Origin: Promethearchaeota archaeon | GTDB taxonomy: Archaea > Asgardarchaeota > Lokiarchaeia > Sigyniarchaeales > SOKP01 | Length of the DNA: 12,854 bases | NCBI GenBank assembly: GCA_011364975.1 | Contig: RDOE01000089.1 | Location: 1 to 12,854, forward strand | Reading direction: 5' to 3' | In this document: piece by piece, positions 3-12,260 of the stretch | Layout of the letters: every line of letters starts with the position of its first letter | Numbering within the stretch: the first letter of the stretch is position 1 | Notes under the pieces: generated by a model | Told to the model about the DNA's origin: nothing | What the model saw: only the letters and a program-made list of their open reading frames with translations | Database searches by the model: none | Translations under genes and position numbers: made by a program

Positions 3-167
3 CTTCAAGTAGGGAGTGCTTTAGACTTGAAAAATATTCTCTTAGCTATTGATATGCGTGATGATCAAGCGAAAAAAATTATCAATAAGATTATAGAAGA
101 TGGTGGACCAATCGAATACGATAACTCTACTGGTACAATTACCCTTAAGGAGGAGGTTGATTTCTAA
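3..167 (+). CDS. 5'-truncated CDS; C-terminal winged helix-turn-helix, probable paralog of the downstream gene
   Basis: Not in the ORF track. Manual translation of frame 3 gives LQVGSALDLKNILLAIDMRDDQAKKIINKIIEDGGPIEYDNSTGTITLKEEVDF*. The stop TAA (165-167) overlaps the next ATG (TAATG). The helix-helix-beta-hairpin pattern aligns by eye with the C-terminus of 167..904. Confidence 0.8.
   Translation, partial: LQVGSALDLKNILLAIDMRDDQAKKIINKIIEDGGPIEYDNSTGTITLKEEVDF
148..160 (+). promoter_or_regulatory. Shine-Dalgarno site for 167..904
   Basis: AGGAGGAGGTTGA ends 6 nt before ATG 167. Confidence 0.7.
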
Positions 168-904
168 TGAGCTCAAATTTAAAGGAAATTCTCGGTTTAA
201 TTGAAAAACTTGAAACTACTTTTGATGAATATCTACAATCCCTCCAAAAAGATAAAGAAGGTGTGTTACAGAATTTAAGTCAAACTTGGAAAAAAATGAA
301 AGAAGAACAACTTGAAATTGAAAAGTTTGAACAAACAGTTAATACTCAAAATTCTGAATTAACGGAATTAACTATGAAGTTACAAGAATTAGAAAAACAA
401 TTATCTGATTTAAGTTCAATCAAGCAAGATAATCTTTCAAAAATTAATGAATTAAATAATAATTTTGAAAAAGCCTCTGTTGAATTAAAAGCTCCTTCTA
501 GTGAATTAGAAAACCTCCAATTAAAATTGAAAACATTAAACGAAAGATTATCAATCAAAGAGTCCGAAAAGATCGCCCTTGACCAGAGGAAGATCGATAA
601 CGAAAATAGAGAAAGACAATTAAAGATTTTATATACTGAAGATAAAATGGAAGAGCTTAATAGAAAATTAGCATTACTTAAAAAAGATAATTACTTTACA
701 TCGTTTTTAATTGAAAATTCTAAAGAAGATTTTCCTGAAGTGGATATTATCTCCACAATTATGAATCAAGGAAGCTGTAATCTGGAAGAACTGAAAAAGT
801 TGCTCGATGTCCCTCCAATAATGGCTCTCAGGACGATCAAGCAACTTGCAGTCAAAGGTATCATAAATCTTGATGATAATACCAATATTATTAGCTTACC
901 ATAA
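167..904 (+). CDS. Long coiled-coil protein with C-terminal winged-helix domain, function unknown
   Basis: About 175 residues rich in E/K/L/Q/N with heptad leucines, then DIISTIMNQGSCNLEELKKLLDVPPIMALRTIKQLAVKGIINLDDNTNIISL (wHTH pattern). No ATPase motifs. Confidence 0.8.
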   Translation: MSSNLKEILGLIEKLETTFDEYLQSLQKDKEGVLQNLSQTWKKMKEEQLEIEKFEQTVNTQNSELTELTMKLQELEKQLSDLSSIKQDNLSKINELNNNFEKASVELKAPSSELENLQLKLKTLNERLSIKESEKIALDQRKIDNENRERQLKILYTEDKMEELNRKLALLKKDNYFTSFLIENSKEDFPEVDIISTIMNQGSCNLEELKKLLDVPPIMALRTIKQLAVKGIINLDDNTNIISLP

Positions 905-1185: not shown

Positions 1186-2397
1186 ATGGAGAACAAAGAT
1201 ATTATACTTGGTATTTTATTAATTGCTGTAGTTGGGTTAGGTGGAGGACTAGGTTATGTCATTATTGCAGGTCCAAGCTTATTTGGTCCAAATCCTACTG
1301 AGGAACCGCCAACTGACCTATTTGGACTTCCTGATGATTGGTCAAATGCTCCAAATGCCTCATATTTCACACTTTATAATCAAACAGGTGATTCATTTTC
1401 AGTTACTTTAAAAGATATCTTGGATGGAATAACCTTAGCCTTAGAAGAACAAGCCGCGGGAGGCCCTGAAATAAATGAATATAAAAAAATCATATATCCT
1501 TATACATTTCTTGAATCTAGCACTGGACTTTACGTTACTGGCGTCGATCTGTTAGATATATTAGAAGCATTTGATATAAATTTTGGTTGGGATCTTAAGT
1601 TAACATCTGCTTACGGACACACATTAGAAATAACGACAGGGGATATCATTGCTAAAATGTATGAAGGCAATGAAGAGAGTATTATTGTGGCAATTGCAGC
1701 AAATAAACAATGGCTAGCACAATCTCCAGTAGGTCCATACTGGGGAAATTTTAGTTTTGTCGGAGAATTAATGTCCTCAGCAATATATAATTTAGAGTCT
1801 GTAGATGTTTCAAGTGACTGGACTGTTGAAATAATAGTAAACGGAACGGTTGAATATATTATAGATCCATCAAATATGACATATAATGAGTATGATGATG
1901 TCTATCATTATGATAGAGATGATTGGTGGAACTTTAATAGACATTACTGGGGAAGAAATATTTCCGAAATTATCTCTCACACATCAGCAGCAGGCTTAAA
2001 TTACACTATGAGAACTTGGTCAGTGGATGGTTATGCCACACCCCGGCCTTTTGGTACTAAGAAAGAATTAAGATATAATAACACTCACATCGAAGAGGGG
2101 ATAATACCACCTTATCCTAACAATATTGGTGGAACAAATGATTTAGTTAATGCCTCACAGGTACCACTCCCTCAAACTAATCTTTTAATGGCGTTAGTTT
2201 ATGCAGACCAAGAATTCGGGGAAACAGGACAAGGAATTACCGATCCAGTTTGGCCATATAGAATGATGTGTGGTTATCATCGTGGACCATTTTATCTAAT
2301 TGTACCCAATCGACCAAGAGATTCATACCTTTCATATGTTACTCAAATAGAAATAACTAAATATCTAGGACCAATTCCATCAGGATTTATTTTGTAA
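1186..2397 (+). CDS. Membrane-anchored extracellular protein with two degenerate sulfite-oxidase-fold (Oxidored_molyb-like) domains; putative cofactor-binding protein
   Basis: N-terminal TM helix and Pro-rich linker, then two repeats of the fold signature: TGVDLLDILE..LTSAYGH..IIVAIAANKQWL..GNFSFV..IYNLESVDV and WGRNISEIIS..TWSVDGY..LLMALVY..GPFYLIVP..LSYVTQIEI. Nine N-x-S/T sequons. The only Cys is not at the Mo-ligand position. Confidence 0.7.
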   Translation: MENKDIILGILLIAVVGLGGGLGYVIIAGPSLFGPNPTEEPPTDLFGLPDDWSNAPNASYFTLYNQTGDSFSVTLKDILDGITLALEEQAAGGPEINEYKKIIYPYTFLESSTGLYVTGVDLLDILEAFDINFGWDLKLTSAYGHTLEITTGDIIAKMYEGNEESIIVAIAANKQWLAQSPVGPYWGNFSFVGELMSSAIYNLESVDVSSDWTVEIIVNGTVEYIIDPSNMTYNEYDDVYHYDRDDWWNFNRHYWGRNISEIISHTSAAGLNYTMRTWSVDGYATPRPFGTKKELRYNNTHIEEGIIPPYPNNIGGTNDLVNASQVPLPQTNLLMALVYADQEFGETGQGITDPVWPYRMMCGYHRGPFYLIVPNRPRDSYLSYVTQIEITKYLGPIPSGFIL

Positions 2398-2408
2398 ATA
2401 CCTAAAAA

Positions 2409-2448
2409 TTTATTTTTTTTTATATTCATTCAACTAAAATAAAAATAA
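2409..2448 (+). terminator. Putative intra-operon oligo-T terminator with downstream A-rich complement
   Basis: T9 run at 2413-2421 just after the stop at 2397, followed by TAAAATAAAAATAA at 2435-2448. Confidence 0.4.
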
Positions 2449-2459
2449 GAGACATAATT

Positions 2460-3356
2460 ATGAAAATTGTAAAAAATTATTATTTATTAAGTATATTGAG
2501 TATCTCGTTATGCTTTTTAATATCAATACCCTCTACTCTTGGTTTTTGGGGCTATGGAGATTGCACTAATTATCACGGTCTTACCTATATTAAACCTTAT
2601 TTAGAGGATAATGCTGTGATAAATTTGGATGGCGTTCCAAGCGAATCTTTCTGGACAGAACATTCAGATTCTACAAAAAATGGTTCCCTTATTATACCTT
2701 TAGCATCAAAAATTACAGAAACAGAATTTTTTATTGTATACCTTGATATAGTATTTGTTCTTTCAGAAGAGTATCTTTACATTTTATGTAGCTGGGAAGA
2801 TAACACAACCAGACCCGATTTAGGAGGCAATTATTATGATGGGCTCTATTTTTGTTGGAATATAAATGTTCCTAATTTTTCTGCTTATTTTTTAGGAGGG
2901 ATGGATACTAATGAGATGGGTGGGGGTGATGTCGATTGTTGGGATTGGAGAATTATGTCATCTTCACCCCCAAATGGGACTTCTAATTACTGTGATGATC
3001 TATGTTTTGGAACCTATGGATGGTATGATCCTTTTTTAGAAAGTGAAAATGTTAAAGTAGCTTATACATATAAAGCGAATTCATCTTATACCCTTGAAAT
3101 TGAAAGAAAATTAGTTACTGGTGAGGATTATGATGTTCAGATTAATAAAAGTCAGCTCTATCTCTTTAATATCGGAATAATGCAAGATGGAACTCATGAA
3201 GATCATGCCATATCTTGGACTTATGCTTTAGATCTAAGAAATGAAGAGCAAACAGCTATTATTTTTGGGCCAAATCCTATAATTTTTACATTAATTATGA
3301 TTTTGTCAATTGTTACCATTATAAAATGCATTAGGGGAAAAAAAAAAGTCATCTAA
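2460..3356 (+). CDS. Secreted, C-terminally anchored DOMON-like (ethylbenzene dehydrogenase gamma subunit/EB_dh-like) putative heme b protein
   Basis: Signal peptide; motifs INLDGVPSESFW, YLYILCSWED.T, DGLYFCW, GGM..DVDCWDWR, YTLEIERKLVTGEDYDVQI, LFNIGI..H..H; C-terminal TM helix plus RGKKK tail; six sequons. Confidence 0.7.
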   Translation: MKIVKNYYLLSILSISLCFLISIPSTLGFWGYGDCTNYHGLTYIKPYLEDNAVINLDGVPSESFWTEHSDSTKNGSLIIPLASKITETEFFIVYLDIVFVLSEEYLYILCSWEDNTTRPDLGGNYYDGLYFCWNINVPNFSAYFLGGMDTNEMGGGDVDCWDWRIMSSSPPNGTSNYCDDLCFGTYGWYDPFLESENVKVAYTYKANSSYTLEIERKLVTGEDYDVQINKSQLYLFNIGIMQDGTHEDHAISWTYALDLRNEEQTAIIFGPNPIIFTLIMILSIVTIIKCIRGKKKVI

Positions 3357-3363
3357 GAACAAT

Positions 3364-3927
3364 ATGGAAAAAAGAAATTTTTATATCCTTATAGCATCAA
3401 TTTTGATTGGAATGTCAGTATTTTGGATTTCAGTCTATAGTTTTATCATATTAGATATTGATCCATTTCAAAATATTAAAAATCTTTTTCCAGAAGAAAA
3501 TACAATTGTGATTACAATCAAAGGGAATGTAGTCGAGGAATTTGAACTAACCCTAAGTGAATTAAAATCAGATCGGTATTTGCAAATTGAAGATAAACAA
3601 TTTCATTTTCTGAATGCAATTGGAAGAGAATATGACTTAATATTTTCAGGAGTATCACTCTGGAGTATTTTAAGTGTAGAAAACCTCTTAAAACCAGGTG
3701 CTATGACTTTTCTCTTCATTGGAGGAGATGGTTATTATGCAGAGACTCCTCTTTCCCTTTCATTAGCTGAGCAAAATCCAGAACAAGTGATTTTAGCTTA
3801 TGAACAAGATGGTGAACCATTATTTTATGATGGTCCTTTAAGATCAGTGGTTGATCATGAAGTTATACCGGATAAAGCAAACACTCATTATGCTGTTAAA
3901 TACTTAAAAACCATACTTATTGAATAA
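3364..3927 (+). CDS. Membrane-anchored single Oxidored_molyb-like (SUOX/MsrP fold) protein with no cysteine
   Basis: N-terminal TM helix; ITIKGNV..ELTLSELKS, FSGVSLWSIL, FIGGDGY, VILAYEQDGEPL..GPLRSVV, VKYLKTILI are typical of the fold. No Cys anywhere in the protein. Confidence 0.85.
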   Translation: MEKRNFYILIASILIGMSVFWISVYSFIILDIDPFQNIKNLFPEENTIVITIKGNVVEEFELTLSELKSDRYLQIEDKQFHFLNAIGREYDLIFSGVSLWSILSVENLLKPGAMTFLFIGGDGYYAETPLSLSLAEQNPEQVILAYEQDGEPLFYDGPLRSVVDHEVIPDKANTHYAVKYLKTILIE

Positions 3928-3940
3928 TGAGGGATATTAT

Positions 3941-4546
3941 TTGAAGTCCGATAATAAAGTTGAAGAATTCAAGAAGACAGGATATTTATTACAAAAATCT
4001 AATAAAATCACTAACTTAGACTTAATATATTCTGTAATAATAGGAATTTTAGGTGGTATTATATCGAGTCTTATTCCCTTTAGTATTTTAATAAAAGTTT
4101 GGTATCCATTAACAGGGGGCACTCAATTAGTAAGTGGACATCATGTTATTTGGGCATCAATTATCTATGGACTGACCAAAAAAAAAACTAATATTTTAAT
4201 TACGATGCTAGCAAAAGGACTACTTGAATTTCTTTTTGGTGATCCATGGGGTTTGTTAATTATATTTGTTAATGTGATGGAGGCATTATGCTTAGCTGGC
4301 GGATTTTGGCTAATGGAAAAGATAGGGGAAGGTGAAACCAAACTAGGATGGGGGATTGCTGGAGGGTTAGGAAACTTTATCCAAGCTCCATTTTTTTGGA
4401 TAATTAACCAGAGGTGGTATCTTCATTGGACCTTATGGGTGTTAGCTTTTATGTTTGCCTTTATCTCGGGTATAATAATTGTTGGTTTATTAGGAAGAGC
4501 TATAAAAAATAGCCTGATCAAAGCAGGCGTCCCAACTACGTTTTAA
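3941..4546 (+). CDS. ECF transporter substrate-binding S component (YkoE-like family), substrate unknown
   Basis: About 200 aa with ~6 TM helices and GLLEFLFGDPWG; adjacent to the ECF ATPase and T genes. Start moved from TTG 3920 to the in-frame TTG 3941, which follows GAGGGA. Confidence 0.8.
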   Translation: MKSDNKVEEFKKTGYLLQKSNKITNLDLIYSVIIGILGGIISSLIPFSILIKVWYPLTGGTQLVSGHHVIWASIIYGLTKKKTNILITMLAKGLLEFLFGDPWGLLIIFVNVMEALCLAGGFWLMEKIGEGETKLGWGIAGGLGNFIQAPFFWIINQRWYLHWTLWVLAFMFAFISGIIIVGLLGRAIKNSLIKAGVPTTF

Positions 4547-4547
4547 C

Positions 4548-4555
4548 GGAGAGTG
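4548..4555 (+). promoter_or_regulatory. SD-like site for the ECF ATPase
   Basis: GGAGAGTG ends 6 nt before ATT 4562. Confidence 0.5.
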
Positions 4556-4561
4556 CTTTAA

Positions 4562-6370
4562 ATTCCTTCTAATAATAATTTAGCTCTTTCTTTTAATGAT
4601 TTCTCTTTTATTTATGATGATAATGAGAATGTAAGTCCTGCAGTTTCTAATATTAATTTTGAGTTAAAAGAGGGAGAAACTTTAATTTTAGCAGGACCAA
4701 GTGGTAGTGGGAAATCTACCCTTTCATATGCTATGAATGGAATTATTCCATGGCGATTAAAAGGATTGATGAAAGGTTTTGTAAAAGTCTTAGGAATAGA
4801 TATCTGGGATTATGAGTATTCAGAATTAAGCAAAATAGTTGGTTTAGTAAAACAGAATCCACTAGATCAGCTAACAACCTTCACCGTACGGGATGAAATA
4901 GCTTTTGGTCTTGAGAATATGAGATATCCTAAAGATGAAATATTAAAAAAAGTGGATGAAATCGCTAAATTTATGAAAATTACTCCTCTTTTAGATAGAG
5001 ATATTAATCAACTAAGTGGGGGTCAAAAACAACTTACTGTATTAAGTTCATTTCTAGCAATGGACCCAAAAATATTGATTTTAGATGAACCAATCGCATT
5101 TTTAGATCAAAATTCCGAAAGTTTATTGTTAAACCAATTAAAAAGATTGAAAAAATCTAATAGATATCGCTTTACGCTAGTTATCATAGAACATAGGTTA
5201 TCTAGAGTGATAGATATTGCAGATAAACTAGTAGTGTTAAATGAAAATGGAGAAATGCATCTAGCTGGTGATATAGCGAAAATTTTAAGAAATAAATATA
5301 ATTCTTTGAAGTCATGTAATCTTAGAGTTCCTTGGTCTATTGATATTATAAATCAATTTAAAAAGTTAAATTTAAATCACCTTGAAATGATCAATCCAAT
5401 AAATTTTAATGAAATAATGCAGCTTATTCAAAATCTTCCAAAAGAGTATCTTAAGGTCTTAAAAAATATAATTATTGAAACTGAAATTAATCCAAAAGCT
5501 TTGCAAGAGTATGAGAGTTATGAACAAATAATCAATTTCCCAGATTTATACATCGAATCATTAAAAGACAAAAAAGAAGATGAGACTAAATATTTAGCTG
5601 ACAAAGTTAAAGATAAGACCGCTGAAGTCATCTTAGAAACCCAACATTTGAATTTTATATATCCAAACAGTGGAATAAAAGCTATTGATGATCTTTCAAT
5701 AAAAATTGAAAAAGGAGATTTTATTGGTCTGGTTGGACCGAACGGTTCCGGAAAAACTACTTTACTTTACTTATTAGCAAATTTATACCAACCAATTAAG
5801 GGAAATATCTTATTTAACGGAATTAATATAAACAAGATCGATCCCCTCGAATATGCCAGAAAAATAGGCTTTATATTTCAAAACCCTGAAAATATGATCT
5901 TTAAATCAACCATAAAAGAAGAGATATTATATGCTCCCTTAAATTTTGGAATTTTAAATGAGATCTCTAATGAATATCTGAGTAAATTAATTAAACTAAT
6001 TGGAGTTAAGGATCATAATCGAAACCCATTTAAACTAAGTTGGGGACAAAAAAGAAGATTGAATTTAAGCTCGATCTTCATCTACAATCCTGAAATAATT
6101 CTGTTGGATGAACCATTTATCGGTCAAGATCAAAAAACAATTGATTCATTAATTGAAACACTATACTTAGAAAATAAAAGGGGTAAAACGATAATAATCT
6201 CCTCTCATGATTATCATCTATTATTAAAATATACTAAGCGTATTTTAGAATTAAATAAGGATGGTAGCTTGATAGATTACGATACTAAAGAGAATTATTT
6301 CACGAAACATAAAAGTTTGGGTCCAATAATATTATTGAATGAAATTAATAAGTTAATAGAAGAGATATGA
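4562..6370 (+). CDS. ecfA: ECF transporter fused double ABC ATPase (EcfA-A', YkoD-like), ~602 aa, probable ATT start
   Basis: NBD1: GPSGSGKST (4694-4720, upstream of the track's ATG 4733), QNP, LSGGQKQ, ILILDEP, EHR. NBD2: GPNGSGKTT, FQNP, LSWGQKRR, ILLDEP, SHD. The frame is open from 4562, after in-frame TAA 4559-4561. Confidence 0.93.
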   Translation: MPSNNNLALSFNDFSFIYDDNENVSPAVSNINFELKEGETLILAGPSGSGKSTLSYAMNGIIPWRLKGLMKGFVKVLGIDIWDYEYSELSKIVGLVKQNPLDQLTTFTVRDEIAFGLENMRYPKDEILKKVDEIAKFMKITPLLDRDINQLSGGQKQLTVLSSFLAMDPKILILDEPIAFLDQNSESLLLNQLKRLKKSNRYRFTLVIIEHRLSRVIDIADKLVVLNENGEMHLAGDIAKILRNKYNSLKSCNLRVPWSIDIINQFKKLNLNHLEMINPINFNEIMQLIQNLPKEYLKVLKNIIIETEINPKALQEYESYEQIINFPDLYIESLKDKKEDETKYLADKVKDKTAEVILETQHLNFIYPNSGIKAIDDLSIKIEKGDFIGLVGPNGSGKTTLLYLLANLYQPIKGNILFNGININKIDPLEYARKIGFIFQNPENMIFKSTIKEEILYAPLNFGILNEISNEYLSKLIKLIGVKDHNRNPFKLSWGQKRRLNLSSIFIYNPEIILLDEPFIGQDQKTIDSLIETLYLENKRGKTIIISSHDYHLLLKYTKRILELNKDGSLIDYDTKENYFTKHKSLGPIILLNEINKLIEEI

Positions 6371-6376
6371 AATAAA

Positions 6377-7246
6377 ATGCCGTCTAGAAATAAGTTATTA
6401 GATAATAGGCAATACCTATTTGCTTATATTTCGAACAACTCCTTTATGCATAAATTAAATCCAATTTCTAAGTTAATCTTTCTTTTATTTCTTACGATTG
6501 AAACATTTATAATTGGGAGTATTATTTTACAATCAGCTTTATTCTTGCTTGTTATTATTTTACTATTATTAAGTAAAATAAAGCCAAAATTTATTTTTAA
6601 AAAACTTCGATTTATGGTTATAATTTTGTTGATTAGTGTAGTTTTAAATATATTTTTTAATGCCCTTCCAAATGAAGACGAGATTGTGTTATTTTATTTA
6701 TTTAATGTCCCATTTTTACCAATTAGAAGATTAGCAGTTTATTTTGCTTTAAGAGCCTTTTTTATATTATTAACACTCTATACTTCAGCAATACTGTTTA
6801 CAAATACAACATCCCCTAAAGATTTTGTATATTCTATGATGAGAATGCGAATCCCATATAAGTTTTGCTTTGCATTTATGGTAGGACTTAGGTTTATTCC
6901 ATCTATTGAAGAAGAAGCTAAAACAATTGCTTTAGCACAACAAGCTCGTGGCTTTAATATAGAGAAAGTTAAAACGCTTCGTAAAGCATATGCGTTTATC
7001 TCTGAAAGAATGATTGGTACGTTAGTTTCAATTTTAAGAAAAGGTCAAACAGTTTCTCTTTCTATGGAAAATCGTTGTTTTGGAGTCTTCAAGAATAGAA
7101 CAAATTTAATAAAAGTTAAGTTTAAATTTTCTGATCTCGTATTTATGGTTCTTATTATTTTAGGTTTCATTTTTATTATTCTTTATATTTTTAATTTCCT
7201 GCCAATTCCTCGAATACCGTCATTATATAGCATATTTTTTACATAA
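6377..7246 (+). CDS. ecfT: ECF transporter transmembrane T component (EcfT/CbiQ family)
   Basis: SFMHKLNPISKL N-terminus, several TM helices, LRFIP, and coupling-helix X-R-X motifs QARG and ENRCF. Confidence 0.93.
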   Translation: MPSRNKLLDNRQYLFAYISNNSFMHKLNPISKLIFLLFLTIETFIIGSIILQSALFLLVIILLLLSKIKPKFIFKKLRFMVIILLISVVLNIFFNALPNEDEIVLFYLFNVPFLPIRRLAVYFALRAFFILLTLYTSAILFTNTTSPKDFVYSMMRMRIPYKFCFAFMVGLRFIPSIEEEAKTIALAQQARGFNIEKVKTLRKAYAFISERMIGTLVSILRKGQTVSLSMENRCFGVFKNRTNLIKVKFKFSDLVFMVLIILGFIFIILYIFNFLPIPRIPSLYSIFFT

Positions 7247-7272: not shown

Positions 7273-8109
7273 TTACGTACTAAATTTTGATATTAACTTC
7301 TTATAACTCGAGTAATTTTTTCTTTCAATTGTATACTTTTTTACAGAATCACTCCATCTAATACTTTGATGTATTGCTTGAGCTAATAAATCAGACTTAC
7401 TCACATAGGTTCCACCAATTACATCAATTCCTCGCCTAAATAAAGGATCTGGCAAAAAACTAGTTGTCGGGCCTATAACTGATTTTTTTTCGGCACTAGT
7501 ACAATAATCCAATACCTCATCTAAAGTATCATTTAAAACAGTTGTACCTGTAATCAAAATTTTATTGCAATCCTTTAATTTAGAAGGATTTAAAGTTACT
7601 AACCAATCTTTTGACTTCTGTACTAATTCTTCCTTTTTTTCTATTACAATTAACTTAGATCCAATCTTTTCTATTAATTTTACCAAAGGAGGAAAAAAAC
7701 CCACCATGCCAATGATATCAGAACTCTTAATATCCAATAGCCCTAAGGAATCAGAGGTAAAATCAAACAAGAAATTTGTTTTTTTAAAAATAAATTGACT
7801 CACGGCATTAATAACACCTAAAGATAATGATCTTTCAAATAAATCCTTCGAATTGAAAAACTTTATTATAGATAATGGTTCCGAACCTTTGAGATAAGTA
7901 AACTCCTCATTCTTGAATTTATTTTTAATTTTAGAACTCAAATTAATATAAATTAAACCAACTGAATTATCTTCTAATATTATCGCAGAAAAATTTGATT
8001 TTTTGGCGTTTTCTCTATTTTGAGGTGTGACGATTTCCTTTATTAAAGGCAAATCAACTACATTTGATATGTCTTCAATAATATTTATAAATTCTAAAGA
8101 AATTGGCAT
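7273..8109 (-). CDS. DUF364 family protein (enolase N-terminal-like plus Rossmann-like domains; putative metal/cofactor chelation)
   Basis: AIILEDNSVGL, ERSLSLGVINAVSQ, IGMVGFFPPL, ILITGTTVLNDTLDEVL, VIGPTTSFLPDPLFRRGIDVIGG. Confidence 0.88.
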   Translation of the reverse strand: MPISLEFINIIEDISNVVDLPLIKEIVTPQNRENAKKSNFSAIILEDNSVGLIYINLSSKIKNKFKNEEFTYLKGSEPLSIIKFFNSKDLFERSLSLGVINAVSQFIFKKTNFLFDFTSDSLGLLDIKSSDIIGMVGFFPPLVKLIEKIGSKLIVIEKKEELVQKSKDWLVTLNPSKLKDCNKILITGTTVLNDTLDEVLDYCTSAEKKSVIGPTTSFLPDPLFRRGIDVIGGTYVSKSDLLAQAIHQSIRWSDSVKKYTIERKNYSSYKKLISKFST

Positions 8110-8115
8110 TATTTA

Positions 8116-10167
8116 CTAAATTAGTTTGATCTTAAAGATTTTTCTTTTTAGCGTTGTTAAAATTTTTTTAATATTTTGAACTCGTTTATTCTTTTTTACT
8201 CCTAACTTTAAATATAAATTTGATTCCCATTTCCCTATTATAATAATTAAGAAAGCTGAAATTAACATAAAAAATGGTCCCATTCCCGGAAAAGTAATCC
8301 CGAAATTTGAAATTAATGTTTCAGGATTAGTAGCCTCTGAAAAGAACGGCATTAAACTTATTAAAATTAATAATAACGTAGGATAGATTAATTTGAAGAA
8401 TCCAGTAATTACTGGTTTTATAAAGGCTAAAATCGAAAAAGTAAACATAATCACTAAAAATAATGAAGTTAAAACAGACGCTATTTCTCCAATAAATAAT
8501 TTCCAAGTAAATAGGTTATTAAAAAAATATATATGAGTAAAGGTGACTCCACCTTTTTCATATATTACCCATGGTAGGATTAAACTTATGTAAGCAAGGA
8601 TTTCACTTAGGCTAATTATAATTAGCATAATAATAACTTTCTTTTTGACCACCTTATTTACATCTTTTTCAAGTCTAGATAATATCATAAACTTATTATT
8701 AATCGCTAAGACAATCGGAATACATATTAATATTGATAATAATATAATAAAAACCGAAAAATAATTACTATGAATGATACCACCTGAGAAAATGTTCGAT
8801 GAAAACCAGATTCTTTCTATATCATTTACATTTACAACTACATAGAAATCTATATTAGAGTCAAATAAACCGGGAGTAAGGGTTACTTTCCATGTTTGAT
8901 TATCAACATTATTAAAATACACTTTTTGCCAACAACTACCCATAATATCAATCCTATTGTATATTACCATAACTGAAGAGATCTGTGAAGATGAATTAAC
9001 CTTTATAGAAAGATTTAAAGAATCTCCAATCATTCCGCTTACTTTAGTCGTTTGCGTAATATTTACTAAAGGGGGTGCTGTTCCATTATTTAAAATATAA
9101 TCAATAAAAAATTTAGTAGAATTTTCAAAGAATGGAAAGCCATGATGTTCATTTGGAAAAATTTGTAGAAATTTGTTTTCGTGTTGAACTGCATCAAAAG
9201 TACCCTTTATACAACTATAGTGGAAAAAATCATCATTTGTTCCTATCTGCCAAAGAATTGGTGGTAGTTTTGGCGATTTTAGGTAATATTTTGGGTCAAA
9301 GCGTAAAAGTTGATTATAAAGATAGGAATCTTGTATCTCAGTAGCACTTTTACCCAAAATCCAAAAGATTAGTTTTGAGGGGTACTTTATATTCTTTGAA
9401 ATATCTCCGATAGCGATATATGAAATTAAACCAGAAATGCGATCTCCACATATCGCAGATAACCACATCGCATTTAAACCTCCATATGACTCTCCCGTAA
9501 CCATAATTTGAGTATTATCTACTAAAGTAGAGTTCTCTAAAACTCTTAATCCTTGTATTGCCGCACACAAAGTAAGGTAAAAATGTGCCGATTCGTTATA
9601 TTCACCTTCATAATACAAATTTTCAGGTCTTGGTTTTGCTCCTTCAGATTTACCATGACCGGGATGAGCGTGAGCCAATACAATAAATCCCTTTTCTAAA
9701 TAGGGAATTGTTAACTCAAATACATCCTTAATATCTGCATTTAAACCATGCATAATCAGACAACCAGGATTTATAGCCTTAATTTCATTTGGATATAAAA
9801 TATAACCATGTATTCTAATAGTTTCTGGACTACTATTCACCCAATTAGGTGAATCAAAATAAATATTTTGAGCATTTAATATATATTCTTTATTTATGAA
9901 CGGATTAGTATATCGGATACTCTGATTTTCACCATAATGTAAAGCTAATGGAGTGTTGTTAACTCGTTCAATTTCACGTTCCCAAAAATCTAAAATATCA
10001 AAATTTTCGGATTGATGAGTTCTTAAGCTATCACCTAAAGGAATAATTTCTTGTTGCGATAGTATTATGTTAAAAAAAATAGAATTTATTGAGAAAAAGA
10101 ATAGGATTGAAACCAAGATAATTAACAGAAATGAATTCTTCCCTAATGATTTATGATTTGATTTCAT
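8116..10167 (-). CDS. Extracellular-facing alpha/beta hydrolase (esterase/peptidase-like) with beta-rich domain and C-terminal multi-TM region
   Basis: N-terminal signal/TM; LIMHG, PGHGKSEG, nucleophile elbow GESYG (9481-9495), GTNDDFF (Asp), PNEHHGF (His); beta-sandwich-like segment; about 5-6 C-terminal TM helices; many sequons. Confidence 0.85.
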   Translation of the reverse strand: MKSNHKSLGKNSFLLIILVSILFFFSINSIFFNIILSQQEIIPLGDSLRTHQSENFDILDFWEREIERVNNTPLALHYGENQSIRYTNPFINKEYILNAQNIYFDSPNWVNSSPETIRIHGYILYPNEIKAINPGCLIMHGLNADIKDVFELTIPYLEKGFIVLAHAHPGHGKSEGAKPRPENLYYEGEYNESAHFYLTLCAAIQGLRVLENSTLVDNTQIMVTGESYGGLNAMWLSAICGDRISGLISYIAIGDISKNIKYPSKLIFWILGKSATEIQDSYLYNQLLRFDPKYYLKSPKLPPILWQIGTNDDFFHYSCIKGTFDAVQHENKFLQIFPNEHHGFPFFENSTKFFIDYILNNGTAPPLVNITQTTKVSGMIGDSLNLSIKVNSSSQISSVMVIYNRIDIMGSCWQKVYFNNVDNQTWKVTLTPGLFDSNIDFYVVVNVNDIERIWFSSNIFSGGIIHSNYFSVFIILLSILICIPIVLAINNKFMILSRLEKDVNKVVKKKVIIMLIIISLSEILAYISLILPWVIYEKGGVTFTHIYFFNNLFTWKLFIGEIASVLTSLFLVIMFTFSILAFIKPVITGFFKLIYPTLLLILISLMPFFSEATNPETLISNFGITFPGMGPFFMLISAFLIIIIGKWESNLYLKLGVKKNKRVQNIKKILTTLKRKIFKIKLI

Positions 10168-10275: not shown

Positions 10276-11148
10276 ATGGTAAATGTCTCTGAGATAGTGA
10301 AAGAGATACAAGAAAATTATAAAATCATCGGACGAAATGATGAATTAAAAAAGATTGTATTAGCACGTTCAGTAGGAAAAAACATTTTAATCGAAGGAGA
10401 AGTAGGAGTTGGTAAAACCACCATTGCTAAAGCAATTTCTTCATATTTTGATACTGAATTTACCCGCATAGACTGTTCTGAAGAAACACTTGCTCATAAT
10501 TTAGTCGGTTATTGGGAACCTCCATTAGTTATATCAAAAGGCTATATTGAAGATTCTTATACTTATGGTCCTTTAGCAACATCAATGTTAAAAGGAGGGT
10601 GTCTATTTATTAATGAAATAAATAGAATGCCTGAAAGTACACAAAACTCATTATTAACGGCATTAGATGAAGGGATTTTAGAAATTCCAAAATTAAAAAC
10701 TATCACTGCCAATAAAAATTTTTTTGTTATCGCTACTCAAAATCCTTCTGCACATGTTGGAGTCACTGTGTTAGGAGAAGCACTTAAAGACAGATTTATA
10801 TGGATAAGATTAGAATATCAACCACCAGAAGAAGAAGTTTTAATAATTAAACAGGAAACAAAATTAAATGGAAAAGACGGTGATAATATAGCTCAATTAT
10901 GTCAAATGATCATTCAAACCTCTCGAGATAGCACATCTATTCGACGAGGTAGCTCTATTAGGGGTGCTATCGATCTAGCGCAACTAATCTCGAATTCGGG
11001 TAATGAACATAGTTCCCAAAACTGGATTGATGCAGCAGTAATGGCACTCTATAATAAAATTGAGTTAGAAGATGGAGTGACCCGGTCTAAATCTGAAATT
11101 ATTACAGAGATAGTTCTTTCAATTTTAAATAAAGCGGATTTTCAATAA
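10276..11148 (+). CDS. MoxR-family AAA+ ATPase
   Basis: Walker A GEVGVGKT, variant Walker B LFINE(INR), QNSLLTALDEG, FFVIATQNP, ALKDRF arginine finger, sensor 2 SIRG; followed by a VWA gene. Confidence 0.92.
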   Translation: MVNVSEIVKEIQENYKIIGRNDELKKIVLARSVGKNILIEGEVGVGKTTIAKAISSYFDTEFTRIDCSEETLAHNLVGYWEPPLVISKGYIEDSYTYGPLATSMLKGGCLFINEINRMPESTQNSLLTALDEGILEIPKLKTITANKNFFVIATQNPSAHVGVTVLGEALKDRFIWIRLEYQPPEEEVLIIKQETKLNGKDGDNIAQLCQMIIQTSRDSTSIRRGSSIRGAIDLAQLISNSGNEHSSQNWIDAAVMALYNKIELEDGVTRSKSEIITEIVLSILNKADFQ

Positions 11149-12260
11149 TCGATGATTTTTCTTCACAAGAATTTGAAGAAATTGAGAAGGATAGGCTTCA
11201 TGTAAGGTTAACAGAAAGGATTCCTGATAATGAAATTTTAAGGTACGAAATCATTCGAAAGAAAAAAAGAAAACCGGATTACTTTCATCACCTAGCAAAT
11301 ACGTTAGATTATAAACAAATCAGAGAACTTTCATATTTAGCAATAAAGTATAAGAATTTAGAAGCTATAATCGGATTGCTAAAATCAAATGTCTACGCTG
11401 CTTCGGATGCATTAGATTGTGACGAGGGTGTAAGATTCTTTGCTGAGAAAGCTAAAGAATCATCTGCTTCAATGGCAGAAGTGTATTTTTTCATAAGACG
11501 TCCAATATCAGAGAAATATAAATCCATTTTTAGGCGCTTAGCACGACAAAGTATTTTGAAAACATCCCTTAAGATTACAAGTAAGGGAATACGAGGTAAT
11601 TTCAAAAAGTCAGTACCTTATTATGAAATTGGTATGCCAGAATTTGATTTGGATGAAACTATTCAACATAATCCTTTAAAAATCTATGATAAGTCCATTA
11701 CATACCGTGATATTTTTGGGATTAAAAGGCAACGTCAGAAAAGAAAGATTGTCCTAATTTTAGATACAAGTGGAAGCATGTATGGGAGATTATTATTGAA
11801 TGCAGCCTTAACAACATCCGTATTAGCATATAATATGGAAAAGGAGGATTATGCAATTATTTTATTTAATTCCACTGCAATGACACTTAAAAAAATAGAT
11901 CAGCGAAAATCTGTGATTTCTATAATTGATGAAATTTTAGATTCAGAAGCTGTAGGATTTACTAATATTCAAATAGGTCTAGAAAGGGGCTTAAAAGAAT
12001 TATCTAAAGTGAAAGAAAAGACCCGAAATAAATTTGGAATATTGATTACAGATGGGAATTATAATCGGGGGGATAATCCCTTAGAATTTGCAAAACGATT
12101 CCCAAAACTTCATGTAATAGGGATGCCGGCTGAAAATGATGCTGAAGGAGGTATAGACACTTGTAGGGAAATCGCCAAAGTAGGAAAAGGTAAATTTTAT
12201 GCTGTAAATAACTATAATGAAATTCCAAGAGCTTTAATTGATTTACTATCTCAAACTTAA
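11145..12260 (+). CDS. VWA domain protein, MoxR partner; start uncertain (ATA 11145 or ATC 11148; track gives TTG 11376)
   Basis: MIDAS LDTSGSM, GFTNI and LITDG, plus EFDLDETI. The frame is open from 11133, 81 codons upstream of the first TTG. Confidence 0.88.
   Translation: MIDDFSSQEFEEIEKDRLHVRLTERIPDNEILRYEIIRKKKRKPDYFHHLANTLDYKQIRELSYLAIKYKNLEAIIGLLKSNVYAASDALDCDEGVRFFAEKAKESSASMAEVYFFIRRPISEKYKSIFRRLARQSILKTSLKITSKGIRGNFKKSVPYYEIGMPEFDLDETIQHNPLKIYDKSITYRDIFGIKRQRQKRKIVLILDTSGSMYGRLLLNAALTTSVLAYNMEKEDYAIILFNSTAMTLKKIDQRKSVISIIDEILDSEAVGFTNIQIGLERGLKELSKVKEKTRNKFGILITDGNYNRGDNPLEFAKRFPKLHVIGMPAENDAEGGIDTCREIAKVGKGKFYAVNNYNEIPRALIDLLSQT

Follow-up and report, generated by a model that had tools for sequence, protein, structure and literature searches.

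A lokiarchaeial gene cluster joining cysteine-less sulfite oxidase-fold surface proteins to an ECF transporter, a candidate salvage importer for molybdenum and tungsten cofactors

To our knowledge, every cell is usually assumed to synthesize its own molybdenum cofactor (Moco). Here, we analyzed a stretch of 12,854 nucleotides (contig RDOE01000089.1, referred to as the window) from an Asgard archaeon of the order Sigyniarchaeales, in which an energy-coupling factor (ECF) transporter is encoded together with three surface proteins, two of them of the sulfite oxidase (SUOX) fold. Comparative and modeled evidence makes it likely that this cluster serves to salvage Mo/W pyranopterin cofactor that is imported preformed and probably with its metal in place. 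Among the described relatives of its parts, the S component YkoE binds thiamine, and metal ECF transporters have accessory extracytoplasmic components, namely CbiN, NikN, and NikK/NikL. PruR binds pterins in the truncated cleft of a SUOX fold that has a Pro-Trp motif where the Cys would be, with an Asn/Tyr/Trp sandwich around the pterin, according to passages of its description (PMC11194511).

Caenorhabditis elegans takes up dietary Moco, and protein-bound Moco is the bioavailable form, as given in excerpts of the report on this animal (PMC7849362). Peng et al. (2018) recorded several hundred prokaryotes with molybdoenzymes and no complete Moco pathway, called "orphan molybdoprotein-containing organisms," the majority of which also have no known Mo transporter; in the passages of that paper the pattern stands unexplained, with biosynthetic components not yet recognized or Mo-independent enzymes as suggestions (PMC6147048). 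For a cultured Asgard archaeon, Imachi et al. (2020) predicted the exchange of vitamin B12, biotin, and lipoate as well as thiamine pyrophosphate and noted a molybdopterin-dependent FdhA, and main-text passages of that paper do not mention Moco supply (PMC7015854). A search of openly accessible main texts found no account of a prokaryotic Moco importer or of Moco auxotrophy in archaea of the Lokiarchaeia type.

The host genome is a 3.74-Mb draft in 200 contigs, with 99.25% completeness and 6.09% contamination, and the window has a GC content of about 30%. Between positions 1186 and 7246, the list of open reading frames (ORFs) gives six plus-strand genes, separated by at most 62 bases or overlapping, in the order SUOX2, DOMON298, SUOX187, ECF S, fused A-A', and T (Table 1). 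A sequence-only reading of this DNA had described six co-oriented genes with these folds at this place, and the ORFs, the Pfam assignments, and the structural models bear it out.

The 403-amino-acid (aa) SUOX2 protein has no match in Pfam or NCBIfam. Its AlphaFold2 model, built from a 31-sequence alignment (predicted local distance difference test [pLDDT], 87.7; predicted template modeling score [pTM], 0.82), shows an N-terminal helix followed by two SUOX-fold domains, and a Foldseek search with it returned PruR (7kom; E 3.6e-5) as the top match, followed by sulfite dehydrogenases and YedY. In VIA-align comparisons, domain 1 (residues ∼43 to 213) superimposes on PruR 7kom with a Z score of 14.4 and a root mean square deviation (rmsd) of 2.0 over 118 aligned residues and on chicken sulfite oxidase 3hbg with a Z score of 13.6, and domain 2 (residues ∼152 to 403) matches plant sulfite oxidase 1ogp (Z 12.4) and YedY 1xdq (Z 9.2). 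Overall, the PruR-type fold matches span Z scores of 13.6 to 14.4 and rmsd values of 2.0 to 2.5. The likeness to PruR and to sulfite oxidase that had been proposed from the sequence is thus confirmed. SUOX187 matches PF00174 with an E value of 7.7e-8 and 32.5 bits (cutoff, 24) and is the sole such match in the genome.

SUOX187 contains no cysteine, and in its family alignment of 28 rows, Cys occupies any given column in 6 rows at most. The single cysteine of SUOX2, C362, lies late in domain 2 and is a Cys in 18 of the 31 aligned homologues. The three SUOX-type domains therefore have no conserved Mo-ligating Cys, in agreement with the earlier description of three Oxidored_molyb-like domains devoid of it. 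In the SUOX187 family, N84 and D122 are invariant and Y124 is nearly so; N84 lies in the loop region where SUOX enzymes have the Cys, and D122 and Y124 belong to a D-G-Y motif. A sequence-profile alignment aimed at the Mo-Cys loop did not cover the key positions. The pterin-stacking Tyr of PruR lies in a motif equivalent to this D-G-Y, as set out in passages on that protein (PMC11194511). The models of SUOX2 and SUOX187 contain N-terminal transmembrane (TM) helices, terminal hydrophobic helices are found in SUOX2, DOMON298, and SUOX187 alike, and SUOX2 and DOMON298 carry nine and six N-x-S/T sequons, respectively, as expected of archaeal surface proteins.

Against this set of candidate cofactor-binding proteins, the genome has 12 genes for enzymes of the aldehyde oxidoreductase (AOR) type (AFOR_N) and 4 for enzymes of the bis-molybdopterin guanine dinucleotide (bis-MGD) type (PF00384). 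Pfam models for MoaC, the MoaA C-terminal domain, MoaE, and MoeA_N found no match in this genome. MoaB was also absent from it, the single PF00994 match being a CinA-type protein related to nicotinamide mononucleotide deamidase, and the searches returned neither a TupA homologue nor a PF13531 (ModA/WtpA-type) match. Since MoaE, MoeA, and MoaB are missing, the organism could neither convert cyclic pyranopterin monophosphate (cPMP) nor insert the metal. The sequence-only reading had expected carriers to possess Mo/W enzymes and no moaA, moaC, or moaE, and this is what was found.

The distribution of the cluster was examined in the 154 genomes of the order, where carriage was scored on the 403-aa protein or a strong S-component match (57 genomes through SUOX2 and 8 through S) and the pathway on MoaC or MoeA. 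AFOR_N is present in 153 of these genomes, with 1 to 17 matches each, MoaC in 73, and MoeA in 79. Both modules were found in 11 genomes, the cluster only in 54, the pathway only in 69, and neither in 20. Among the 94 genomes of at least 90% completeness, the corresponding counts were 6, 39, 47, and 2, and among the 63 of at least 95% completeness they were 2, 26, 35, and 0. Both the cluster-only and the pathway-only state occur within each of six genera (g1, g5, g6, g11, g12, and g18), which indicates that the switch happened repeatedly. The cluster is also carried by three single-contig genomes (G135, G138, and G143) in which MoaC, MoeA, and TupA are all missing, so that assembly gaps cannot explain the absences there. 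TupA was found in 62 of the 154 genomes: in none of the 54 with the cluster only, in 59 of the 69 with the pathway only, in 2 of the 11 with both, and in 1 of the 20 with neither. The archaea of this order retain about ten W/Mo pterin enzymes each; pterin synthesis, metal insertion, and oxyanion uptake appear to have been lost together in about a third to half of them.

An importer of a metal-free intermediate, either cPMP or molybdopterin, would explain the alternation with MoaC equally well; cPMP is the most stable intermediate of the pathway, and a SUOX fold devoid of Cys would hold the pterin moiety either way. However, within the order MoeA is lost along with MoaC, the window's genome also lacks MoaE and MoaB, and the cluster-only genomes are uniformly without TupA, as this genome is without any ModA/WtpA-type protein. 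Because the enzymes that would process cPMP or molybdopterin are gone, we consider the import of such an intermediate unlikely.

The cluster and the pathway also share a chromosomal site. In ten further loci that were fetched and annotated, the site lies between a coiled-coil gene and a MoxR-VWA pair wherever both borders fell inside the fetched stretch. The site holds only the ECF cluster, which is the state of the window; or tupABC with a moaC-moaA-moaD-moaE-moeA-moaB-moeA operon, as in five pathway-only loci (G234, G247, G189, G158, and G174), in each of which at least one border gene was seen; or the cluster and the moa operon in tandem, as in all four fetched loci of genomes with both (G273, G275, G276, and G175). 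In the tenth locus, from the pathway-only genome G137 of family f3, neither border gene lay within the fetched stretch. The common borders indicate that the ECF cluster and the Moco module occupy a single cofactor-supply island, either in place of each other or jointly. The coiled-coil gene stands beside the cluster or the Moco operon, including in pathway-only loci (L058 and L059), and its product, which has a weak C-terminal match to MarR (E 4.6e-4, below the cutoff), could be a regulator. At the right border (AAA_5, E 5.5e-22; VWA, E 1.3e-9), the MoxR-VWA pair flanks the island in each of its states, with the ECF cluster, with the Moco operon, and with the two together (L052 to L060 included), and the MoxR AAA+ ATPase and the VWA protein may be maturation chaperones for Mo/W enzymes.

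The absence of TupA wherever the cluster stands alone would also be expected if the cluster were a tungstate or molybdate uptake system that replaces TupABC, and the arrangement at G275, G276, and G175, where no tupABC intervenes between the cluster and the adjoining moa operon, points the same way; tupABC lies between the two only at G273. Yet the 54 cluster-only genomes have no pathway that could use the metal, so that oxyanion import alone would be useless to them, and four of the five genomes with both modules that were tested have a PF13531-type binding protein elsewhere. Moreover, the SUOX fold binds the pterin cofactor and not oxyanions. Oxyanion uptake is therefore a very unlikely function.

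Turning to the transporter itself, the S component matches PF09819, the YkoE family, with 29.6 bits (cutoff, 25.2), and its best match in the PDB is YkoE (5edl; E 0.0035, residues 79 to 204). The A-A' protein scores 308.7 bits against TIGR04521 and 285.9 bits against TIGR04520 (ECF_ATPase_1/2), both just under the equivalog cutoffs, and T matches PF02361 (CbiQ; E 7.5e-26) and, under the cutoff, TIGR02454 (E 2.3e-20). With S, two ATPase domains, and T encoded together, the cluster is predicted from its gene content to specify a group I (dedicated) ECF transporter. The coordinates of A-A' required correction: the frame is open from 4562, and its first ATG, at 4733, comes only after the first Walker A motif (GPSGSGKST). 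No ATG, GTG, or TTG precedes this motif in the frame from 4562, so that the protein must start at a noncanonical codon, probably the ATT at 4562, which directly follows a TAA and has GGAGAG 9 bases upstream. A canonical A-A' start is missing in 3 of 19 relatives (L035, L045, and L047), and the other 16 have GTG, TTG, or ATG.

These assignments bring up a YkoEDC-like importer of thiamine or hydroxymethylpyrimidine (HMP), or of another pterin or vitamin such as folate, methanopterin, or monapterin, with the SUOX proteins as small-pterin binders of the PruR type. YkoE is the nearest solved relative of S, YkoD has the same fused A-A' architecture, databases label the relatives of S "thiamin/HMP transport permease" (JGI) or "ECF transporter S component," and domain 1 of SUOX2 finds its best structural match in PruR. 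Nevertheless, the match to YkoE is weak, and an Rfam scan of the window found no riboswitch or other RNA family at the gathering score. ThiC served as a control both for general genome reduction and for the thiamin/HMP label. It is present in 133 of the 154 genomes, at equal frequency in cluster carriers (56 of 65) and noncarriers (77 of 89), in counts that were tallied by hand with one unlisted nonmatch deduced from the genus tally, and the window's genome itself has two matches. ThiC thus shows no association with the cluster, which alternates with and adjoins the Moco operon specifically. The thiamine/HMP reading is unsupported, and we regard this whole class of substrates as improbable.

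The TTG start of S overlaps the stop of SUOX187 by 8 bases, and contact between the two products was examined by modeling the complex of the two families. The median ipSAE was 0.61 (0.00, 0.63, and 0.61 in the three runs), and the best of three controls scored 0.00; of 80 solved complexes 58 attained this mark, and of 110 mismatched pairs 2 did. The partners had pLDDT values of at least 77, and at least 38% of the contacts were common to the runs. In the modeled interface, the TM helix of SUOX187 lies against residues 162 to 182 of S, and SUOX187 residues 84 to 86 and 122 to 125, which include the D-G-Y motif, face residues 53 to 64 of S, so that the motifs of the SUOX187 cleft come to lie above the outer loop of S. 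The model supports contact between SUOX187 and S, short of showing one. In one locus (L043, G153:C182), two S components lie in one cluster, each with its own SUOX187-like gene ahead; a second S copy is also found in G156 and G273, and the copies might differ in specificity, for example for the Mo and W forms.

Conservation of the cluster was followed in the wider phylum, where the 403-aa protein occurs in 60 of 400 genomes, 57 of them in the window's order and 3, with weak matches (E ∼1e-4), elsewhere. The S component is found in 65 of the 154 genomes of the order. For synteny, 20 of the 63 listed places of SUOX2 were sampled, from E 6e-215 to 8e-5. SUOX2 and SUOX187 are present in all 20 loci (SUOX187 weakly in one), S and A-A' in 19, and DOMON in 15, and T stands alone in 17 and is joined to A-A' in 2, so that the order SUOX2-(DOMON)-SUOX187-S-AA'-T recurs across these relatives, and the cluster proves to be conserved. 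In two loci of family f3 (L049 in G143 and L051 in G135), A-A' and T are seemingly fused in one ORF of ∼860 to 890 aa. With ECF components as neighbors in 19 of the 20 loci, a PruR-type operon partner, that is, a GGDEF-EAL protein of the DcpA type or a sensor, was not found.

Named homologues of the window's genes are all from Asgard archaea, under the labels Promethearchaeota or Lokiarchaeia, and this holds likewise for SUOX2, SUOX187, and S; a contig scan based on the SUOX187 alignment yielded 35 loci, every one from an Asgard metagenome-assembled genome. A profile search of 1.84 billion representatives returned 294 matches at E ≤1e-3, among them some bacterial SLH surface proteins with repeated related domains. 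Three of these (P0176, P0249, and P0208) have up to seven repeats related to the SUOX187 domain, one example of such proteins being a 2,250-aa protein of Clostridium formicaceticum with SLH, Reg_prop, and PF00174 matches. In some relatives, ORFs of ∼360 to 380 aa that are weakly similar to SUOX187 lie just outside the core cluster (L033, 2039-3178; L034, 7686-8768; L040, 7674-8753; L037, 9755-10891).

The third surface protein, DOMON298, scores 23 bits against Pfam EB_dh (PF09459), under the cutoff of 33.3. Its AlphaFold2 model (pLDDT 78.1) matches EbdC (2ivf_C) with a Z score of 18.9 and an rmsd of 2.8 over 192 aligned residues and NxrC (7b04_C) with a Z score of 18.3, which confirms the EbdC-like DOMON fold assigned earlier; weaker matches are CBM9 modules (Z ∼12.5) and the cytochrome domain of cellobiose dehydrogenase (Z 8.3). 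A profile match to NxrC (E 2.1e-5) gives an alignment that misses the heme-ligand positions. The heme ligands of EbdC are Met and Lys. C35, H39, C132, M148, and H249 are invariant in the DOMON298 family and would be compatible with a disulfide and with a heme held by Met and His. DOMON298 may bind heme and have a redox role, as an accessory protein that is missing in some relatives.

The pairing of SUOX-fold proteins with a candidate heme protein whose fold matches heme-b subunits recalls MsrP/MsrQ, and the cluster might be read as a surface redox or signaling module, MsrPQ-like or PruR-like, linked only genetically to an unrelated ECF transporter. Such a module is hard to reconcile with the missing Mo-ligating Cys and with carriers that have no Moco supply of their own, or with the overlap of the SUOX187 stop and the S start, a pair kept in 19 of 20 loci. 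The modeled SUOX187-S contact also argues against it, as does the lack of DOMON in 5 of 20 loci, and we find this explanation scarcely credible.

Salvage of finished, metal-loaded cofactor is the simplest account of the pattern. Taken together, the loss of the pathway, the alternation of the two modules, and their common site narrow the substrate to the Mo/W pyranopterin cofactor. The sequence-only reading had proposed that SUOX-fold surface proteins capture a pterin-type cofactor, with Moco or its tungsten counterpart (W-co) named first, for an ECF transporter; the results support this proposal, in which we infer the ligand, its metal state, and its hand-over. In the mechanism that we envisage, SUOX2, SUOX187, and DOMON298 would be three membrane-anchored proteins at the cell surface. 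Since the Cys that ties the metal is missing, the SUOX domains could hold the cofactor reversibly. SUOX187 would dock on S through its TM helix and present its cleft to the outer pocket of S, and the fused A-A' ATPase and T would drive uptake as in other ECF transporters. The imported cofactor, from partner cells or from protein-bound cofactor in necromass, would feed the 12 AOR-type and 4 bis-MGD-type enzymes inside the cell. We lean toward the view that about a third to half of the order (54 of 154 genomes; 26 of the 63 near-complete ones) live through this ECF system on finished, metal-loaded cofactor from partners or necromass.

Several observations weigh against the salvage of finished cofactor. 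Free Moco is reputedly very labile, so that both a source and a carrier form of the cofactor are needed. The S component belongs to the YkoE Pfam family, with relatives labeled as thiamin/HMP transporters, and one of the three runs of its complex with SUOX187 scored 0.00. Eleven genomes have both modules, which means that the cluster and the pathway are not strictly exclusive, and two genomes of 92% completeness (G229 and G233) have neither. The genomes of a single order are related, nonindependent samples, and the counts ignore kinship, so that a Fisher test overstates the association; absences were called in draft genomes by means of Pfam models and a single TupA query. Two MobA-like genes, which would bear on the supply of the bis-MGD enzymes, fall below the TIGR02665 cutoff. 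Finally, the ectodomains are small and PruR-like, and the cleft of PruR is too short for Moco according to passages of its description (PMC11194511).

If the salvage of Moco or W-co is borne out, the cluster would be the first dedicated transporter for these cofactors described in any organism and would offer a testable answer to the "orphan molybdoenzyme" prokaryotes. It would give ECF transporters a new substrate class and a new architecture of capture proteins, and it would correct the widespread database label "thiamin/HMP transporter." Moco and W-co would then be tradable within syntrophic communities of sediments to which Asgard archaea belong, and these archaeal kin of eukaryotes would be seen to have one more concrete dependency in their metabolism. 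Close relatives that differ in this either/or state supply natural experimental contrasts.

Two genes on the minus strand separate the cluster from the right border in the window (Table 1). The DUF364/DUF4213 gene had been thought part of the system, a proposal that does not hold: strong orthologues occur in cluster carriers and pathway-only genomes alike, mostly on other contigs, and the gene adjoins the cluster only in G000, G240, G271, G169, and G168. The 683-aa protein recurs between the island and MoxR in L032, L035, L038, L056, and L057. Elsewhere, a SelD-like ORF (L062, 2435-3250, minus strand, in G000:C76) matches only positions 78 to 345 of the SelD model, as would be seen if a selenocysteine codon within the frame had cut the ORF short.

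Table 1. Features of the window, with the cluster first and its surroundings after it (wHTH, winged helix-turn-helix)
Feature	Position	Strand	Basis
SUOX2, 403-aa membrane-anchored ectoprotein, two tandem Cys-less SUOX-fold domains	1186..2397	+	AlphaFold2 model and structure matches
DOMON298, EbdC/NxrC-fold ectoprotein with N-terminal signal/anchor and C-terminal TM helix; possible heme b site	2460..3356	+	Fold match
SUOX187, 187-aa ectoprotein with a type-II anchor and a single Cys-less Oxidored_molyb domain; predicted to dock on S	3364..3927	+	PF00174 and complex model
ECF S component, 208 aa, TTG start, PF09819/YkoE-like family	3920..4546	+	PF09819
Fused A-A' ECF ATPase, ~602 aa	4562..6370	+	Two ABC_tran domains
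ECF T component, CbiQ family, 289 aa	6377..7246	+	PF02361
Coiled-coil protein, left border of the conserved site	167..904	+	Synteny, weak MarR-like wHTH
MoxR-type AAA+ ATPase with a VWA protein, at the right edge of the site	10276..12260	+	AAA_5, VWA, synteny
DUF364/DUF4213 protein	7273-8109	-	Domain assignment
683-aa protein, alpha/beta-hydrolase (S9/S33-like) ectodomain and multi-helix C-terminal membrane part	8116-10167	-	Domain assignment

Compared with described systems, the proposed way of life resembles that of C. elegans in depending on Moco made by others; the nematode differs in being a eukaryote, and excerpts of the report on it name no transporter (PMC7849362). DOMON298 shares the fold of EbdC and NxrC, the heme-b gamma subunits of the type II dimethyl sulfoxide reductase family, but it has no alpha and beta partner subunits, is anchored in the membrane at both ends, and stays below the Pfam cutoff. 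With the SUOX-family molybdoenzymes (sulfite oxidase, SorA, and YedY/MsrP), the cluster has in common the fold of the Moco-binding domain (Z 9 to 13.6) and, in SUOX187, PF00174. In contrast to these enzymes, its proteins have no ligating Cys and no dimerization or heme domains, and the carriers cannot make Moco; SUOX2 and SUOX187 are predicted binding proteins, not enzymes.

The nearest structural counterpart of SUOX2 domain 1 is PruR (7kom, 7kp2, 7kos, and 7rkb), likewise a minimal Cys-less SUOX fold outside the cytoplasm. PruR itself is soluble and noncatalytic, controls the cyclic di-GMP enzyme DcpA, and binds small pterins, as passages of its description state (PMC11194511). The cluster proteins are instead membrane-anchored, coupled to an ECF transporter, and tied to Moco supply, and SUOX187 has an Asn at the loop position. 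As extra membrane or periplasmic proteins that would help an ECF S-type component to get its substrate, they are comparable to CbiN, NikN, and NikK/NikL, from which they differ in fold and in substrate (Ni and Co for the latter). The transporter itself is closest to YkoEDC, the group I ECF system for thiamine/HMP of Bacillus subtilis, with which it shares a PF09819 S component, a fused double ATPase, a CbiQ-type T, and a dedicated operon. It departs from YkoEDC in its weak similarity (E 0.0035), in having no link to thiamine genes, and in the three added extracytoplasmic proteins of SUOX and DOMON fold; the genomic and phyletic link of this cluster is to the Moco pathway.

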